From NCBI GenBank assembly GCA_951406725.2, contig OX597816.1:35278001-35342000 (forward strand): a DNA stretch of 64,000 nucleotides. The letters run 5' to 3'. The notes under the pieces are model-generated. The model did not search any database. It was not told the DNA's origin and saw nothing but the letters and a program-made list of their open reading frames with translations. The translations under genes were made by a program, and so were the position numbers. This document shows positions 3,603 through 61,016 of the stretch, piece after piece (within the stretch, counting starts at the first letter, position 1; every line of letters begins with the position of its first letter). This DNA comes from Octopus vulgaris. Lineage: Eukaryota.

Positions 3603-4892
3603 CGAGGGGCGTTCAATAAGTAATGCCTCTGACCCACTTGCAGTTGTTTGATCTAGCTGAAATTTTGCATTTTGCAATTATTTATATCTCTATAGATTAA
3701 GTGGCAAATTACAGCTCTGAACTAATTGTGGTTTCTGATATACAGGTGTTTGAACTGAGTCAAGTGTGAAATGGAGCCTGTTGAGTGTCGAGCAGTGATC
3801 CGGTTTTTGTATTTGAAAGGACGCACACCACGGGAGACTTTTGATGAAATGAAAGTAACTTATGGTGATGATGCCCCATCATATGACCTTGTAAAACGCT
3901 GGCATCATGAATTCAAACATGGTTGGAACTCTGTGGAAACAGCTCCCAGATCTGGTCGCCCCCCTTCTGCCATTGATGAGGCATCTGTCCGTCAAGTTGA
4001 GGCTGCCATTTTGGGAGATCGACGCATAACTATTCGCCAAATAGCCCATGAGGTCAAGTTTAGTACCGGGTCTGTGGAAACTATCATTCATGACCATTTG
4101 CATATGCAAAAAGTTTCTGCCAGATGGATTCCCAGGTTGCTCACACTTTTCCAGAAGCAAGAACGCGTCGAGTGCTCGAGGATGAATTTGGAGATGTGCC
4201 AAGAAGACGAGTCAAAATTTTTCAAAAGACTGATTACACAGGATGAAACCTGGGTCCATCACTATGATCCAGAGTCAAAAGCCCAGTCAATGCAGTGGAA
4301 GCACCGTGACTCACCTCCTCCAAAGAAGGCAAGGGTGCAGCCCTTCGCTGGCAAGGTCATGCTCAGTCTTCTGGGACCAGGACAGAGTAGTGATGACAGA
4401 TTTCCTGGCAAAGGGTACCGCAATTACAGGAGCCTATTATGCTTCACTTTTGAGGAAATTAAGAGAAGCTATCAAAATCAAGAGGCGGGGCAAGATCAGC
4501 AAAGGCATCCTCCTCCTGCAGGACAACGCTCCGGTCTACAACTCGCGTGTCGCCAGATCAGAAGCACAGGCGTGCGGCTATGAACTCCTCCCCCATCCCC
4601 CTACTCTCCTGACCTTACACCCTCTGATTTTCACCTCTTCCCTGCCATGAAGTTGTTTTTGAAGGAAAGCGTTTCCCAGATGATGCAGCCTTGATTTCTG
4701 AAGTCACGTCGTGGTTGGAGGACCAATCTGGGGTCCTCTACAAAAACGGTCTCCAGAGTTGCATCAAAAGATGGGAAAAATGTGTAACTCTGAGTGATTC
4801 CTATGTAGAAAATGACTAATAACTGTGCCAAGTTTCGTTGCTCTACTGCTATGGGAAGTGGGTCAGGGGCATTACTTATTGAACGCCCCTCG
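3603..4892 (+). mobile_element. Full-length mariner (Tc1/mariner, DD34D, irritans-like), 1290 bp
   Basis: 37-bp TIRs CGAGGGGCGTTCAATAAGTAATGCCyCTGACCCACTT with 1 mismatch; TA target duplication at 3601-3602 and 4893-4894. Confidence 0.97.
3771..4819 (+). pseudogene. Mariner transposase with about 3 frameshifts
   Basis: HTH region, WIPRLL, QDETW, QDNAP, then PHPP/YSPDLTPSDFHLF in another frame; frameshifts near 4366, 4600 and 4665; TAA at 4817-4819. Confidence 0.95.
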
Positions 4893-9217: not shown

Positions 9218-9302
9218 GCCAAGATAGATAGATACCCATTACACATTCTTTATTTTCTCTCTTTTCTCCCTTTGTTTTCCTTCTTCGTTTCTTTCTGCGT
9301 TC

Positions 9303-9338
9303 CATTCTGCCGAAGAGCATAGGCTCGAAATGTTAAAG
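9303..9338 (+). ncRNA. Minimal hammerhead-like motif, family A (position 6 = C)
   Basis: catt-CTGCCGA-A-GAGC-ATAG-GCTC-GAAA-TG-TT-aaag. Confidence 0.5.
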
Positions 9339-10092
9339 TCTTTTTCACTTCCCGAGGGTTAAACTAATACAACTTTTTGTTGTCTACACCACCTGTCTTC
9401 GTCTTGTGTTTTATTTTGTGAATTCTCCCTATATATATATTGACTACGCACAAGGACCATCCGGACTGCCGCCTTTGCCGTGGACAGGAATTAATAGTCT
9501 CTCTTGGCTACTTTGCGCTACCTGGTTTCAACTCCCCTCCCTTCGTCATTCGACTCCCCTCCTCTCCTAACTTCATCTGATAGCTGCTTCCACTCTTCCT
9601 TCTTCCTCTCTCCCTCTCTTCACCTTCTCTCTTCATTGATATCCCCTCTGTCTACATCCCATCGCTACACATCCCACCACCACATACCCCCACCCACACA
9701 TCCTCACACTACAACCCCAAACTCACACACCCCAACGGTACCACACCACACACACTGGCACTGACCACTTCCCAGCACCCTCATCACATACCATCGTCTG
9801 CACATTCACAAAGCATCATCCACACAGCCGCACATCATCCACATACCCACACATTACAGATGCACACACGCACATATTCATATGTCAAAGTCACTAGCTC
9901 CCATTGACACACACAATCCCACATACATTCATGTACGCGGACCTTCCTTTTGGGATCACCAGTACTTTATTATTTCTCCTTTTCCTTACCTCTCCTGTCC
10001 AACTACCAATTTCTAACCAGTCGCTATGATTGACCGCTAAATCCAAATGTTTTATTTTTTATTCTCTCTCTGTGTTTATTTCCTCGTGTTCC

Positions 10093-10126
10093 TTTCTGTC
10101 GAAGAGCGTAGGCTCGGAACATAAAA
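10093..10126 (+). ncRNA. Minimal hammerhead-like motif, family A, decayed
   Basis: ttt-CTGTCGA-A-GAGC-GTAG-GCTC-GGAA-CA-TA-aaa. Confidence 0.45.
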
Positions 10127-10222
10127 CTACTTTTTCACCTTGCCGAGCGTCTAACTAATACACCTGCTTGTTGTCTATACACCTGTCTTCGTTCTTTGTT
10201 GTTCTGTTAATTTCCGCTATAT

Positions 10223-10429
10223 CTCTTTTACTCTTTTACTTGTTTCAGTCATTTTGACTACGGTCATGCTGGAGCACCGCCTTTAGTCGATCAAATCGAC
10301 CCCGGGACTTATTCTTTGTAAGCCTAGTACTTATTCTATCGGTCTTTTTTGCCGAATCGCTAAGTAACGGGGACGTAAACACACTAGCATCGGTTGTCAA
10401 GCAATGCTAGGTGGACAAACACAGACACA

Positions 10430-10528
<99 letters not shown>

Positions 10529-10686
10529 GACAGGCTTCTTTCAGCTTCCGTCTACCAAATCTACTCATAAGGCATTGGTCGGCCCGGGGCTATAGCAGAA
10601 GACACTTGCCCAAGATGCCACGCAGTGGGACTGAACCCGGAACCATGTGATTGGTTAGCAAGCTACTTACCACACAGCCACTCCTG
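10223..10686 (-). mobile_element. tRNA-derived SINE family 1 (resembles described octopus SINEs)
   Basis: Near-identical reverse complement of 15033-15446; A/B boxes, internal (TA)(TG) tract, AAAGAGT tail. Confidence 0.92.
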
Positions 10687-11498: not shown

Positions 11499-11529
<31 letters not shown>

Positions 11530-11748
11530 ACGGGAAGGTTTACGAAAATAAACAAAAGACGAAGGCAGGTGGAGTACAAACAGACAAATGTATTAGTACG
11601 GCGTTCAGGAATAGAAATAGAACAAGTCCTTTACGTTTCGAGCCTACGCTCTTCCACAGAAATATACACAGAAAAAGAAACAAGGAGAGAAACAAGGAGA
11701 GATAAAAATGCGTGTAGGAGCTAACGGTCTATCATGGGGTTCTGACCA
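11530..11748 (-). mobile_element. PLE pLTR fragment, family A, inside (TA)n
   Basis: Homologous to 36383-36555 and 9270-9430; (TA)n on both sides. Confidence 0.8.
11629..11662 (-). ncRNA. Minimal hammerhead-like motif, family A (A6U)
   Basis: ttt-CTGTGGA-A-GAGC-GTAG-GCTC-GAAA-CG-TA-aag. Confidence 0.6.
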
Positions 11749-12513: not shown

Positions 12514-13425
12514 CTATTTTATTGTATCTAGTTTCAGCTCACTAGTTGTGGCCATGATGGGGCACTGCCATTCGCTGTTGCTACATGATTTTACTTCACG
12601 AATGCTTTTTAGCAATTGCCATTTGGTGCATGAGAGAGTTCGATGCAGCTGCCCTCATCTCCACCTCCTGCCGTGACGTTGGTTCATCTGGGACACCTGA
12701 CAGGAAGACATCTGCATCCACCCCATGCAGGCCTCTCAGGTTCTTCCGGTGTTATTGAAGAGCTGTGGGCGTCTGAAGCTTTGGCTATCACAGTATCTTG
12801 TCCTGCATCTTGATGGCAAAATTGGAGTTCTTGGCACTATGCAGTGGTGCCCAGTTCTAGTATTTGTGTCACTCTCAATGCCATTGTTTGAGACAAGTCC
12901 TTCTAGGATCTTCCAGATATATATTATGGCATACCTTTCTCGCATACGGTCCAGTATATTTATTGGGTATTGCATTTAGTTTTGCATGCTGATAGCATAA
13001 AGCTTGAAACTTTTCAGCATTGAACTGCATGCTGTTCTTTTCAGCCCACTTGTGTATTTTGTCCAGCTCACATTGCAGGTGCATAGTGTCTTCAGGGTTC
13101 TGTGTTGCCTGTGAAACTTTTGTATCGTCTGCATAACTTGTGATCGTGGCTCTCTGCGTGGCTGAGAGGACCATTATGAACAGTAGTGGTCCCAAAACAG
13201 TGCCTTGCGGAACACCGCTCACTATTTGCGTGTTAATAGAAGTGGTACCATTGGCTACTACCACCTGGCTTCTATCCTTCAGAAAGTCATGAAGCCATTC
13301 TCCCAGTTTTCCAACTATGCCAAGATCACGCAGTTTATGGCATATCATTCCATGATCGACTTTATCAAAGGCCTTTGCAAAGTCGAGATATATGACTTCC
13401 ACATTTGAGTGGTTGAGCAGTCGTT
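12511..13425 (-). mobile_element. 5'-truncated, internally deleted CR1/L2-group LINE (RT plus 3' UTR)
   Basis: YLDFAKAFDKVDH, SGVPQGTVLGPLLF, YADDTK, RERYAIIYIWKILEGL; 3' end abuts (TA)n; clade assignment is tentative. Confidence 0.9.
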
Positions 13426-15032
13426 TCTGTATGTATATATATAAGTATATATATATATATATATAAGATGAATTTTATTGAGTGATTTCAGGCGATACAA
13501 ACAGGAAATTTAAAATATATTAGAAATTTTGAATTTTCCTTTTATTTATAGTCGTTGCCTAATCGTTGATTACCATACACACTCGTAGAAATTATTGAGA
13601 AATCATACGGAGGAATGATTAATCTGAAACAGAGTCTAAGCCTCGCAATATTGCGATTATGTGTCTCCACTCAGAATGTTCTGAAGTTCGCCTATACTGC
13701 TGAGATCCAAATGTAACAAATGTCTTGGTAATCAGACCGCAAATTTCCATGCTTTCCTGCTGTATTTTTTTGTGGCTTGTAAATATTTCATATTAAGTAT
13801 TTTGGTTTTTAGTTATTTATTTATTTTTCTGTGTTGTTAATATGGACGTAGCCGCTGGCCATTGTGCTCTTTGTTATGAAAACTTGGAATCAATTAGTAT
13901 CATTGTATTAAATGTATCAAAACAGCAAATGGCATGAAAATAAATAAGACTATCGAATAGTAAAAACAGCGTTGTGTAACGTCGATCTTGACATTCTGTG
14001 TCGGAAAATAGGAGATGGGTGTTACAAACGCTATGATTTTGGAGATGAGCTGAATTTAACAACAACACAATGATAACATCAAGAAGAGCAGCTGCAATAA
14101 TCACAACAAGCACAATGGCGCCGTCAATAGCAGCACAAACACCAGCGAATAAATATTTGATTAAAGTTCTTTCCGTGTAAAAGGGCATCAGGAAATCCTG
14201 GTTATAGTAAAAATAGTTCCTTAACATAAACACATTTCTAAAGATATTTATAACGCCTTTATTGTATATTTAGGTGGTGGTGGTGGTGGTGGTGGTGGGA
14301 ATTACCATATTGCCCTGTAGAAATTTAGCTAAATGAGGTAAATGCTTGACGTTCTTTTTTCAAAGTACTTAATACATTTTAAGAGTATTGACAAAGCAAA
14401 GCAAAGAAAATGTTTACGCAAGAATGCATTGAATATCTCAAAAATAGTTTTGTACCATTGTCAAGTAACCAACGACAGTCAATTATGCTAATGTGTGAAA
14501 ACGGTTTTACAAATGGACCCTCAAGTCGTTCCGGGTGTCTTGAATATTTGAAGAAAACACACTCTAAACCATCATTCAAAATCTTTGTTATCAGTTACAT
14601 TTGCGAAATTTGCAGAAACTGAAGACTACCAGAAATACATTTCCCAGCATTTCACAACAATGTTGCAATGATATGCCTTCGTTGTATGTCTCATTTCTGA
14701 ATGGTGCACGCGGTAATTTGCTTGCAATTGGAGATCTTATTCTTCTAGAACTAAGAGAAGGTTTGCAGAGTTTTATACAAATAATCCGAAGAGATTTTTA
14801 AAGCTAGTCATCTTAGAATGAAAGAAATATCTAAATCATTGACAACGACATCGTAATATGCTTTTGACAACTGAATTTAGCTTACATTTAGATAAGACCA
14901 TTCTCTCAGACAATAACTGTTTATTTATAAAAGATGGATGCGTGGTTCCGGTGTTATAATTTACAAGAAAACCAGATACACAATCAAAAGTAGAGTAAAT
15001 ATATCATGTTTTTGAAATATGTCGTAGCGATA

Positions 15033-15446
15033 GGCGCAGGAGTGGCTGTGTGGTAAGTAGCTTGCTAACCAACCACATGGTTCCGGGTTCAGTCCCACTG
15101 CGTGGCATCTTGGGCAAGTGTCTTCTGCTATAGCCTCGGGCCGACCAAAGCCTTGTGAGTGGATTTGGTGGACGGAAACTGAAAGAAGCCTGTCGTATAT
15201 ATGTATATATATATATGTATGTGTGTGTTTGTGTGTCTGTGTTTGTCCCCCTAGCATTGCTTGACAACTGATGCTGGTGTGTTTACGTCCCTGTCACTTA
15301 GCGGTTCGGCAAAAGAGACCGATAGAATAAGTACTGGGCTTACAAAGAATAAGTCCCGGGATCGATTTGCTCGACTAAAGGCGGTGCTCCAGCATGGCCG
15401 CAGTCAAATGACTGAAACAGCTAAAAGAGTAAAGAGTAAAAGAGAG
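15033..15446 (+). mobile_element. tRNA-derived SINE family 1, full length
   Basis: A box TGGCTGTGTGGT, B box GGTTCAGTCCC, CTTGGGCAAGTG CORE-like segment, internal microsatellite, (AAAGAGT)n tail. Confidence 0.93.
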
Positions 15447-33267: not shown

Positions 33268-33578
33268 ATTTTACAACCTAAAGGGATAACTATATACGTC
33301 ACTAAAGTGACAAAGGGTGCGAGTCGACACCAGTATGCTAGAAATAGCCATAGAAAGCACTGATGAGCATTAGGTGGCGTAAGCAATAAAGTGCGAAATC
33401 GTCGATGATCTGGCTGTATCTACTACTGTAGGGAGCTTGCCTCTCTTTTCAATCATTAACATAGTGCTTTCTGTGGCCATTGAGTAGTTTTGCCTCTTAT
33501 TTCTAGCAATACTGATGCGGATTAGTGACTTTTGTCACTTTAGTGATGTATATATATCCACCTTTAAGTCGTAAAATT
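33268..33578 (+). mobile_element. Fold-back PLE pLTR (inverted arms) inside (TA)n
   Basis: 33268-33361 is a gapped reverse complement of about 33464-33578. Confidence 0.75.
33356..33415 (+). ncRNA. Type I hammerhead with complete canonical core
   Basis: CTGATGA 33360-33366, stem II GCATT/AGTGC, GAAA 33395, stem III ATCG-TCGA-TGAT, C17 = 33410, weak stem I AGCA/TGGCT. Confidence 0.75.
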
Positions 33579-35974: not shown

Positions 35975-36305
35975 CAGTCTAGTTAGGTGGCGCTGTGCTC
36001 TTATGTATACATGCAAACACCATTTGTCAACAAACGAGATATATTCTACGTCACAGAACGCTGTGAGTAGATTGTTCCCCAGTTTTAAAAAAATCAAGCA
36101 TATTCGGACTGTTAATAACATTGCAATTTTACTTGTTACTGCTTAGAGTAATAATAAATATAATATTCAAATGAGTAGTTTTATTCTGACTTAATTACCT
36201 AAATGCATTTTGACAGACTAAAAATCTATTATCTAGAATATTTTAATTGTTACATAGACAAAACTATGCGTATACACGCATTACATTCTACTAATATGTA
36301 TATAT

Positions 36306-36382
<77 letters not shown>

Positions 36383-36384
<2 letters not shown>

Positions 36385-36555
36385 CGGGAAGGTTTACGAA
36401 AATAAACAAAAGACGAAGGCAGGTGGAGTACAAACAAGCAAATGTATCAGTATGGCGCTCAGGAATAGAAATAGACCAAGTCTTTTACGTTTCGAGCCTA
36501 CGCTCTTCGACAGAAAGATACACAGAAAAGAAACAAGGAGAGAAAAACAATGCGT
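36383..36555 (-). mobile_element. PLE pLTR fragment, family A, inside (TA)n
   Basis: Close match to 11530-11715. Confidence 0.8.
36481..36518 (-). ncRNA. Minimal hammerhead-like motif, family A (A6U), best-preserved copy
   Basis: TCTTT-CTGTCGA-A-GAGC-GTAG-GCTC-GAAA-CG-TA-AAAGA; perfect stems I and II. Confidence 0.65.
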
Positions 36556-48587: not shown

Positions 48588-48651
<64 letters not shown>

Positions 48652-48816
48652 CATATATACGAAAGGCTTCTTTCAGTTTCCATCTACCAAATCCACTCAC
48701 AAGGCTTTGGTCGGCCCGAGGCTATAGTAGAAGGCACCTGCCCAAGGTACCACGCAGTTGGACGGAACCCGGAACCATGTGGTTGGTAAGCAAGCTACTT
48801 ACCACACAGCCACTTC
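48413..48816 (-). mobile_element. SINE family 1
   Basis: Reverse complement of 15033-15446 with a small internal deletion. Confidence 0.92.
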
Positions 48817-48837
48817 TAACAGTGATTTTTTAAAAAA

Positions 48838-58897: not shown

Positions 58898-61016
58898 GTG
58901 TGGATATGTATTATTCGTATGGGTATGTATAAATAGTTGCATTTATGTCATCATATCCGCTCTATATACCTGAGGTCACTCCTCTCTAACATGCTTCTTA
59001 TACACCTACCATCCTTTCTGCACACAATTTTATACGCTTCCTATCTAGCCACTCCACTCCACTTCTTCCCAAACCACCCCTTCATCATACAAATGCGCGA
59101 GTAACCTACGTTTCCTACTGATTCATAGCTTCTCCCACTTTCAAGTGCTAAATTTAGTTTCTCCCCGGACTTTCGTCCACACTGCCGCACCTGTCCATCC
59201 CTCTCAAACACCTCCGTCCTTACCGGTACCTAGCATTACCACTAACACATCATCGACACATTCACTTCCTCGTCTACTAATGCGATTTACTGCATATTAG
59301 TGCATTTGAGAAGTTTCAAAGTTCCGTGCAGATGCAGATTGCTCTTGAAGATCAGTGAATGACCGATACACCTTTGTTGATTGGTCTGCTTAGGAACCTT
59401 CGTGGTGTCCAACAACATTAACAACTGCAACAAAAACAGCAATGAAGAGGTATATATATATAGAAGTATGTTGAAATGAAAACGCCAGACAAAATACCAC
59501 AGATCCACATTGTCTATCCCAGAAATTACAATGCTGGAACATTAGCCAGCTACATATGGCGATTAATATTGTGCGGCACGGCAAAAATAATTTTTTGGAC
59601 TTTGCTGGGAAAACGTAAGCAATAATACATCAAAGGAAGCCAAGCGGAGAATAATCCTAAAGGATTCCCACGATCGGGATACCTTCTTGAATTCAATAAA
59701 TGAAGTTTTTACGAATGTTCTTATGACAGAATTTTTTCATTTTGGAAACATGGTTTTCTCCATTTGTAATATGAGAAATTTAAGGAAATATACAATGGCG
59801 CAGCTGAAACCATTGGGCGAGGTGCAGCTGAAAGCATTCGGCTACTGCTGGGATCGAACAACAAGAGTCGACTCTTCTTTCCCTCAAACGAAAAGGTAGT
59901 TTTTCGTTTCGGTTATTGTCTACAGCAAGCTGACCAAGTCTGCATAACTATCTCCACTATTATAAAGGCTATGTACTTCCAGCTAGTATGTCTGGTGTGT
60001 ATTAAGTCTCGCCAAGTGCAATAGTAGACATGAAACCTAGCAACTTACAAGATAGTTAAATACCATCTATAGTAACACACTCAAACACACACACACACAG
60101 ATATAGGCGACTTGTTAACTGTATATGTGTGAGTGCGAGAGCACGTACATATTTGTGACTATGTCTGCTTGTGTGTGTGTGTGTGAATGTATTTATGTAT
60201 ATATGTATAATTTTTATAAATAAATATGTGTGTATGTATGTATACTGTGTTTATGTATGTATACACATACCCAAATACGCTTATACACGTATATCCATTA
60301 ATCCTCAAAAGTGACGTCACTTACTCGCAAATATAAAAATTTCACATCTCTTATACTTCTATGCATGTACATGCCTGCACAAATGCACGTAATGACTTTA
60401 AATAATTTAACAGAGTAATAATAGATGTACTGAATTTAATTTAATCGTTTAAAATTTCTTTTGCAGCATGTCAAGACGATTTTCTTCGCCTTTTACATTT
60501 CCTTTCTTCACGGGAATAAATAATTAGAATACGAATTTCGATTCATATGTATATATCTATATTCATATAGTTTTCATCTGTCAATTGTAGTTGCTCATAC
60601 ACAGACTGAGATTATTACGATATATATTCTATAAGAACTTCATTATTCTCACTATTAACTTTTGATTAAATTTGGATTTATATTCTATTATGGTTAATAT
60701 TTGTTTTTTATTAATTTAATATCTTGTATTACTTGATCTTTGTATATTTATATTTACAATGCTATTTTAGTTAGATTTTTCCTCCGTTGTATTCTACCGA
60801 TTAAATTATATTCGTTTAGAATAGGTAGAGACATGCCTTGTATGAATATGCTTATATAAATTGTTTCATTTTGTATGTGTCATTGTGTATATTTGCACAC
60901 GTACGTATATATATATGGGAGTATTGTATATAGGTGTACGTGTGCGTAGTGCGTACGCGTACTAGTGTGCCTGAAGGCTTTACATGCAAATGTGAGTTGT
61001 ATGTGTGCATGAGTAC

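Follow-up and report, generated by a model that had tools for sequence, protein, structure and literature searches.

The locus at positions 36481-36518 raises the question whether a hammerhead-like motif that has lost one defining core base can still cut, or is kept for another reason. It lies on the minus strand of a 64,000-nt stretch of Octopus vulgaris DNA (contig OX597816.1; the window), and its consensus A6, a base that hammerheads hardly ever lack, is replaced by U6 at 36510. An earlier note on this stretch had described four copies, had placed the substitution in the master element, and had seen in it either an active non-canonical ribozyme or a catalytically dead fold. The motif and the remains of the retroelement that carries it are arranged as follows:

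36514..36518, minus strand: 5' strand of stem I, from sequence reading (pairing probability 0.59-0.90 in the 38-mer)
36507..36513, minus strand: core strand C3-U4-G5-U6-C7-G8-A9 (C3 at 36513, U6 at 36510, C7 at 36509)
36494..36506, minus strand: extra A after A9, followed by the 4-bp stem II (G10.1-C11.1) with a 4-nt loop
36486..36493, minus strand: G12-A13-A14-A15.1, palindromic ACGU (36490-36487) and A17; the layout is that of the min-HHR consensus described in PMC4209133
36481..36485, minus strand: 3' strand of stem I (5 bp with 36518-36514)
36378..36555, minus strand: solo pLTR copy, the 5'-truncated 3' end of a Penelope-like retroelement (178 nt)
36300..36383, no strand: (TA)n microsatellite on which the element's fixed 3' end lies; it is the insertion target, and its left edge is approximate
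11524..11745, minus strand: second truncated 3' end, with motif 11627-11664 (U6/G7)
9262..9417, plus strand: older truncated 3' end, with decayed motif 9302-9339 (C6)
9449..9561, plus strand: degenerate C-terminus of the GIY-YIG endonuclease encoded by the element (blastn 74%, tblastn 57% to the L311 element)
10065..10200, plus strand: 3' end belonging to the 9449 fragment, with decayed motif 10091-10128 (U6, A13G)

All four copies (at 9303, 10093, 11629 and 36481) were present, could be aligned across approximately 190 nt and fit the hammerhead layout with some decay, as had been claimed; position 6 indeed reads U in the copies at 36481, 11629 and 10093 and C in that at 9303, never A, and N7 reads C, G, C and C, respectively. 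In the 36481 copy, the stem II-loop (36505-36494, minus strand; pairing probability 0.99-1.0 in the 38-mer) is followed by GAAA at 36493-36490, U16.1 at 36487 and A17 at 36486, which places the predicted cut site between 36486 and 36485 (minus strand). The earlier description of stem III as nothing but the palindrome ACGU holds for the copies at 36481 and 11629, the only two of the four in which it is intact, and fails for the decayed copies at 9303 (AUGU) and 10093 (A13G and ACAU); the conclusion drawn from it, that such a motif implies a dimer, agrees with the dimer-type minimal hammerheads of PMC4209133. Copy 36378..36555 matches the final 189 nt of a young full-length unit (L311) at 85% identity and 39 other genomic copies at 95-98%, and it shares its 3' end at (TA)n with other loci. 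It is truncated and stands alone, no partner lying on its strand; as such a relic it is a poor test construct compared with young full-length elements. Loci related to the fragment at 9449..9561 translate to the endonuclease. A search of Rfam (E<=10) gave no hammerhead among the matches listed (150 of 243 weak ones).

Some other features lie near these copies. A conserved motif approximately 20-25 nt 3' of the cut (window 36465-36455, minus strand, and equivalents) is present in families A, B and C and has the potential to base-pair either with stem II's 3' strand or with GAAACGU. A stem III formed in cis via a downstream GAGCG motif was considered and rejected: in the youngest subfamilies that place is taken by GCGCC, and it is the proximal site with which stem I covaries. 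A CUGAUGA...GAAA arrangement with a 5-bp stem II but without stem I (33360-33400, plus strand) is probably due to chance. From their motifs, we take the segment at 3759-4650 (plus strand) to be a frameshifted remnant of a mariner-type transposase and that at 12875-13474 (minus strand) to be a fragment of a non-LTR reverse transcriptase. Dispersed, SINE-like 210-nt repeats of approximately 90% identity are found at 10253-10686, 15037-15408 and 48609-48817.

The genome (2.8 Gb, 227 contigs) was searched for exact matches to a 29-nt pattern that leaves positions 6 and 7 unspecified, the reversed pattern serving as control; 15,817 matches versus none in the control place the abundance of the motif far above chance. 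U6 was present in 96.4% of the matches, and among the first 100 listed of the 565 non-U matches 71 C, 19 A and 10 G were counted by hand, corresponding to A6 in approximately 0.7% of the 15,817; this spectrum is that of neutral decay. Selections made on other grounds concurred: with flanks alone, the first 100 listed of 11,464 loci gave 96 U, 2 C, 1 G, 1 unclear base and no A, and at young loci selected by their open reading frame the motif was found downstream in 27 of 30, each time with U6 (27/27). Two samples from the oldest subfamilies that could be defined contained 83 U, 11 C, 5 A and 1 G (first 100 listed of 513) and 86 U, 9 C and 5 A (first 100 listed of 370). A6 copies were found on every subfamily background, and a hidden A6 master within family A was rejected, as the five A6 copies per hundred in each old-subfamily sample were scattered over a low-support tree; with 14-17% non-U in these samples, small old A6 or C6 lineages may exist within the family. 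U6 is thus the master state, family-wide, and the substitution was already in the master element, as the earlier note had supposed; the consensus whose determination it had called for carries U6, not A6. Family A was also present in sequencing runs under four organism labels, with N7 variants listed in all four; the variant tables of these runs are incomplete (known H17 and N7 variants are missing), and their lack of a position-6 row was given no weight. A metagenome scan gave no matches.

Conservation was assessed on 173 copies clustered by their flanks alone, excluding family B and loci picked for non-U6; each of three thresholds yielded six subfamilies, which together comprised 84, 101 and 130 copies, respectively. 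Subfamily majorities varied at 62/132, 64/139 and 62/140 flank columns (approximately 45%) versus 3 of 38 motif columns, namely N7, H17 and the outermost base of stem I (Fisher p about 1e-5), a contrast inflated by the collection of copies with a fuzzy anchor (stem II-GAAACG) and of many loci with core-fixing patterns; the flank- and ORF-based selections, the only core-blind ones, gave the same core. Within the 28-nt core only N7, with four states among the six subfamily majorities as befits the free position that it had been taken for, and H17 (A/U) varied, and these are exactly the positions left free by the published consensus (PMC3088659). The consensus C3 U4 G5 A6 N7 G8 A9 is departed from at position 6 alone; G12 A13 A14 A15.1 and U16.1-H17 conform to it, H17 being A or U in every subfamily majority, and the other catalytic bases, the NUH triplet and the palindrome were kept over 5-38% flank divergence. 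C3, G8, A9, G12, A13 and U16.1 are unpaired in the predicted zipped fold (see below) and yet never change, so a plain hairpin does not suffice as an explanation. Stem II showed no change at all within the U6 family, and its loop was likewise invariant among subfamilies. Since position 6 never changed among the masters, U6 behaves as constrained, not free.

The same search with the canonical A6 core and identical spacing gave 1,269 genomic matches versus 63 in the control. Among them, family B has the stem II of family A with another loop and a flipped stem I pair; it carries A6 in 46 of 52 matches, the remaining six being U6 motifs with family A flanks, and its downstream flank resembles that of family A (2/300 shuffles as high). 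Several other min-HHR families with canonical A6, some with other stem II pairs, were seen at L151-L179 and L210-L239. Stems I and II were examined for covariation in 34 rows (30 unfiltered canonical-pattern loci and the four window copies; one row misaligned): 58 double-change cells were counted versus 24 after shuffling, none of 500 shuffles was as high and all slid controls were beaten. The stems, whose lack of conservation or covariation would have spoken against the proposal of the earlier note, therefore show compensatory changes across the families of this genome; it is the A6 families that supply this signal, the U6 family contributing none of it. The additional nucleotide separating 9 from 10.1, G10.1-C11.1 and the palindromic 15.2-16.2 are further min-HHR traits found here. 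Judged by outgroup, A6 to U6 is the derived change, as the other families of the genome and 44 published min-HHR rows carry A6; the tree of 3' ends, in which family B forms a clade (100) of unsupported attachment (66 or less), was discarded as a guide to the order of change, its branching being unresolved, and the direction rests on the outgroups.

Constraint could in principle act on the DNA, the segment being kept as part of a promoter in the pLTR or of an endonuclease site and the hammerhead shape reflecting ancestry only. The invariant loop II would suit this, and a cluster of 5' ends approximately 96 nt upstream may mark a transcription start, with the motif lying where internal promoter elements could lie; however, the variable sites are those that RNA chemistry predicts and the stems covary across families, which makes an origin of the conservation at the DNA level very improbable.

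The carrier is a Penelope-like retroelement of the Neptune/Nematis type, the clade being assigned by shared traits, and the motif is located in its terminal repeat (pLTR). This assignment follows from a frame with reverse transcriptase and GIY-YIG endonuclease, the linker between them, the fixed 3' end on (TA)n and the variable 5' ends (PMC8557442). A 359-aa C-terminal piece (from L240) gave 113 scored genomic matches of 92-100% identity and 705 database homologues, with PF26215 in most and PF00078/PF01541 in some; the piece alone had no Pfam and no PDB match. All 12 long-frame loci fetched contained an open frame of 1,024-1,214 codons with RT, CX4CxxC linker and GIY-YIG (965 aa between the Met common to them and the end of the nuclease); in the domain search RVT_1 scored above the cut-off (E=1.6e-7) and GIY-YIG below it (E=0.0076), and the CX2-5CxxC motif between RT and endonuclease, common to Neptune and Nematis, was seen in the translations. 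In nine of these 12 loci two same-strand U6 motifs, one in each pLTR, lie 4,470-4,573 nt apart, giving a full unit of 4.5 kb, and two of the two-motif elements are 99.8% identical over 5.7 kb. These 4.5-kb elements are intact and recently inserted, and the retrotransposon was recently active. Copies in general show partial tandem pLTRs, 5' truncations of varying length and a fixed 3' end, which lies on (TA)n approximately 110 nt beyond the cut, and a second same-strand motif within approximately 1.5 kb occurred in only 3 of 90 sampled loci. The earlier note had missed that the carrier is a Penelope-like element with an already described motif class, of which only U6 is unusual. A fragment of a related endonuclease linker at window 59174-59296 (plus strand; 61% identity over 41 aa) has neither 3' end nor motif behind it.

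According to nearest-neighbour prediction for the 38-mer, P(G5:C15.2) amounts to 0.45-0.98 with U6, the highest value being that of the youngest subfamily (U7, together with U17, as in L311 and L320), and to at most 0.10 with A6. U6 is thereby predicted to zip the monomer core, U4-G5-U6(-U7) lying on (A14)-A15.1-C15.2-G16.2 with U6 paired to A15.1, so that the dimerisation palindrome would be hidden. In the same models some N7/H17 combinations misfold with A6 too, in other ways, and longer sequence contexts weaken stem I of the window copy.

If the motif cut freely, its traces might be sought in the ends of genomic copies. The start of the 5' UTR was located in 168 copies, and 87 distinct copies were examined for their ends: 78 read through the upstream cut site, eight begin downstream of it and one was not aligned. 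No pile-up of 5' ends was seen at the cut (1 of 47 within 5 nt in a 560-nt window, about 0.9 being expected; farther upstream, some of the ends reflect alignments that stop in simple repeats), the upstream cut site was exact in 73 of 77 cases, and the inserts of these 87 copies bear no sign of cutting at the predicted site. Such silent ends are compatible with cutting, as only uncut or re-ligated RNA yields such inserts. The 5' ends of eight loci (L335, L336, L340, L356, L382, L389, L394 and L403) cluster 91-101 nt upstream of the cut, several of them fused to the 3' end of another copy's short 5'-UTR piece; the cluster, centred about 96 nt upstream, may represent the transcription start. The paired pLTRs of an element share private variants (0.22 substitutions per 460 nt within versus 1.74 between elements; 9 elements), so one template was copied more than once, and this repeated copying fits a circle closed at the cut. 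At L403 (G000:C8:18599500-18604000), however, a tandem of 4.5 x 492-nt units, 99% alike and with one U6 motif each, is joined at about -96/+396 from the cut; repeated copying can therefore arise without the ribozyme, and a ribozyme-made circle was rejected as the source of this array, found at one locus only. Its units combine pLTR and 5' UTR, an inverted 5' piece accompanies them and (TA)n lies on either side; the array is a retrozyme-like derivative. Three UTR starts approximately 4,470 nt apart at G000:C6:117391933-117400905 (L320, L411) form a full head-to-tail tandem.

The earlier note had offered two readings. A fully working non-canonical ribozyme would cut in the dimer, the 4.5-kb unit would be ligated to a circle, and more than one round of reverse transcription would generate the pLTRs; the paired motifs at unit distance in 9/12 long-frame loci, the private variants common to both pLTRs, the existence of the three-unit and 492-nt tandems, the scarless cut sites and the circularisation of retrozyme RNAs by RtcB (PMC7229834) are in its favor. 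The junction of the 492-nt array away from the cut, the eight loci whose ends lie at -91 to -101 and whose upstream motif is uncut, and the strongly deleterious effect in Mg of known changes at position 6 render it quite unlikely. The alternative is that the fold has been catalytically dead since A6U and persists as a rod or junction that is bound by the RT-endonuclease or positions the RT start about 113 nt downstream. The missing 5'-end excess together with the 73/77 exact upstream sites, the zipped monomer (0.98 in the youngest subfamily), the invariant loop II and a U6 that never reverted while N7 took four states are what one would expect of it, and insertion of Poseidon in vitro was unimpaired by hammerhead mutants (PMC11167929) while Naiads spread without canonical motifs (PMC8557442). 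It is put in question by the retention of the remaining catalytic bases, NUH triplet and palindrome, and by the RT-initiation RNA feature described in PMC11167929, a separate stem-loop downstream of the hammerhead; a dead fold is the main rival explanation, possible albeit doubtful.

The evidence fits a middle state better than an active or a dead one. We regard the U6 minimal hammerhead as a putative damped ribozyme, probably protein- or dimer-assisted, whose cleavage is predicted, and give this reading about an even chance of being correct. Loss of A6 would weaken the chemistry and the monomer would be zipped shut, slow cutting taking place only when two copies pair through ACGU or when the element's own protein refolds the motif. 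Reverse transcription, presumably starting about 113 nt 3' of the cut, would have to pass the cut site, and low cleavage would leave the template usable; it is thus likely, as a prediction, that without A6 the motif cuts more slowly and the RNA remains intact during its copying into DNA. The residual cut might free the element from read-through transcripts or supply unit-length molecules for circularisation, by which selection on the rest of the core would persist. A damped ribozyme is supported by the A6C change elsewhere, which lowers and does not abolish cleavage: the natural A6C hammerhead reacts at under 0.1 per minute, slowly in Mg and well in Mn (PMC3088659, PMC7151607). Moreover, min-HHR dimers cleave weakly (PMC4209133), and a Poseidon hammerhead needs its own protein in order to cut, the cut being dispensable for insertion in vitro (PMC11167929). 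Against a damped ribozyme count the lack of a 5'-end excess at the cut with 78/87 copies reading through, the behaviour of a fast hammerhead made A6C, whose rate in 0.3 mM Mg fell more than 10,000-fold below that in Mn (PMC7151607; for A6U, no cleavage rate was found in the literature, classic core-mutagenesis work aside), the invariant stem II loop, which catalysis alone does not need and which suits protein or DNA-level constraint, and the fact that N7 and H17 would be equally free in a same-shaped dead fold. A more specific version, in our view unlikely, is a built-in lock: U6 would shut the free RNA until the element's own RT-endonuclease or the second pLTR opens the motif, whereupon both ends would be cut and a circular template would yield the tandem pLTRs.

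One lineage has lost a consensus core base and kept all others through at least six subfamilies. U6 motifs outnumber like-spaced A6 motifs (15,817 versus 1,269), a comparison between different patterns and ages that is suggestive only. It remains an open question why Penelope-like elements keep a hammerhead (PMC8557442), cleavage being dispensable in vitro (PMC11167929), and an A6 sister family with the same stem II, together with intact young elements, offers a natural experiment that could tell whether selection acts on catalysis or on shape. Descriptor searches that require A6 undercount such motifs. Should the lock exist, an animal retroelement that is amplifying at present would contain a naturally occurring, protein-gated hammerhead whose core is altered, and CUGANGA-based surveys would overlook entire high-copy families.

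Architecture with palindromic stem III, dimer logic and link to Penelope-like elements are already known (PMC4209133); the fixed U6 appears to be new. As the consensus fails at one defining base, the motif is placed by its sequence as a variant derived from the min-HHR of Penelope-like elements, not as a proven hammerhead ribozyme. The literature search revealed no natural U6 hammerhead and no cephalopod Penelope-like hammerhead; Lunse et al. 2017, by its title on variants of these elements cleaving as dimers, may bear on this, and a literature match for "A6U" was dismissed as it concerns twister. With Neptune/Nematis (PMC8557442) the element shares the RT followed by a C-terminal GIY-YIG, the CX2-5CxxC linker, the DKG motif, partial tandems, inverted 5' pieces and (TA)n targets, and it differs in its non-consensus hammerhead core. 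The L403 derivative is like the non-LTR retrozymes (PMC7229834; bioRxiv 10.64898/2026.07.22.740005) in its short pLTR-derived tandem units with one motif each; such units are absent from the window copies, which are solo ends of a Penelope-like element with a minimal motif, not the canonical loop-loop type. Poseidon PAc of the green anole (PMC11167929) likewise has a hammerhead in the pLTR, uncut RNA as the main template and no RNA ends at the cut, and its RT start lies roughly 85-92 nt past the cut (111-118 minus 26), here about 113; it belongs to another clade, its protein-assisted activity was shown, here it is predicted, and the available part of that account mentions no change at position 6. 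The min-HHR, minimal type I hammerheads that metazoan Penelope-like elements carry (Cervera and de la Pena 2014, PMC4209133), likewise occupy both pLTRs, have a short stem I, one more base behind A9, G10.1-C11.1 and a palindrome at 15.2-16.2 where stem III would be, and occur mostly as solo, truncated copies; they differ in A6, found in all 44 alignment rows examined from Fig. S3 and demanded by the descriptor, and the core variant reported there is U3-A8. The hammerhead of phage Bcep176 shows a natural A6C with the rest of the core kept, as here (PMC3088659, PMC7151607); it is, however, a single, monomeric phage locus with C6, whereas the octopus motif is of the dimer type and has U6 fixed in a lineage of six or more subfamilies with more than 15,000 copies.
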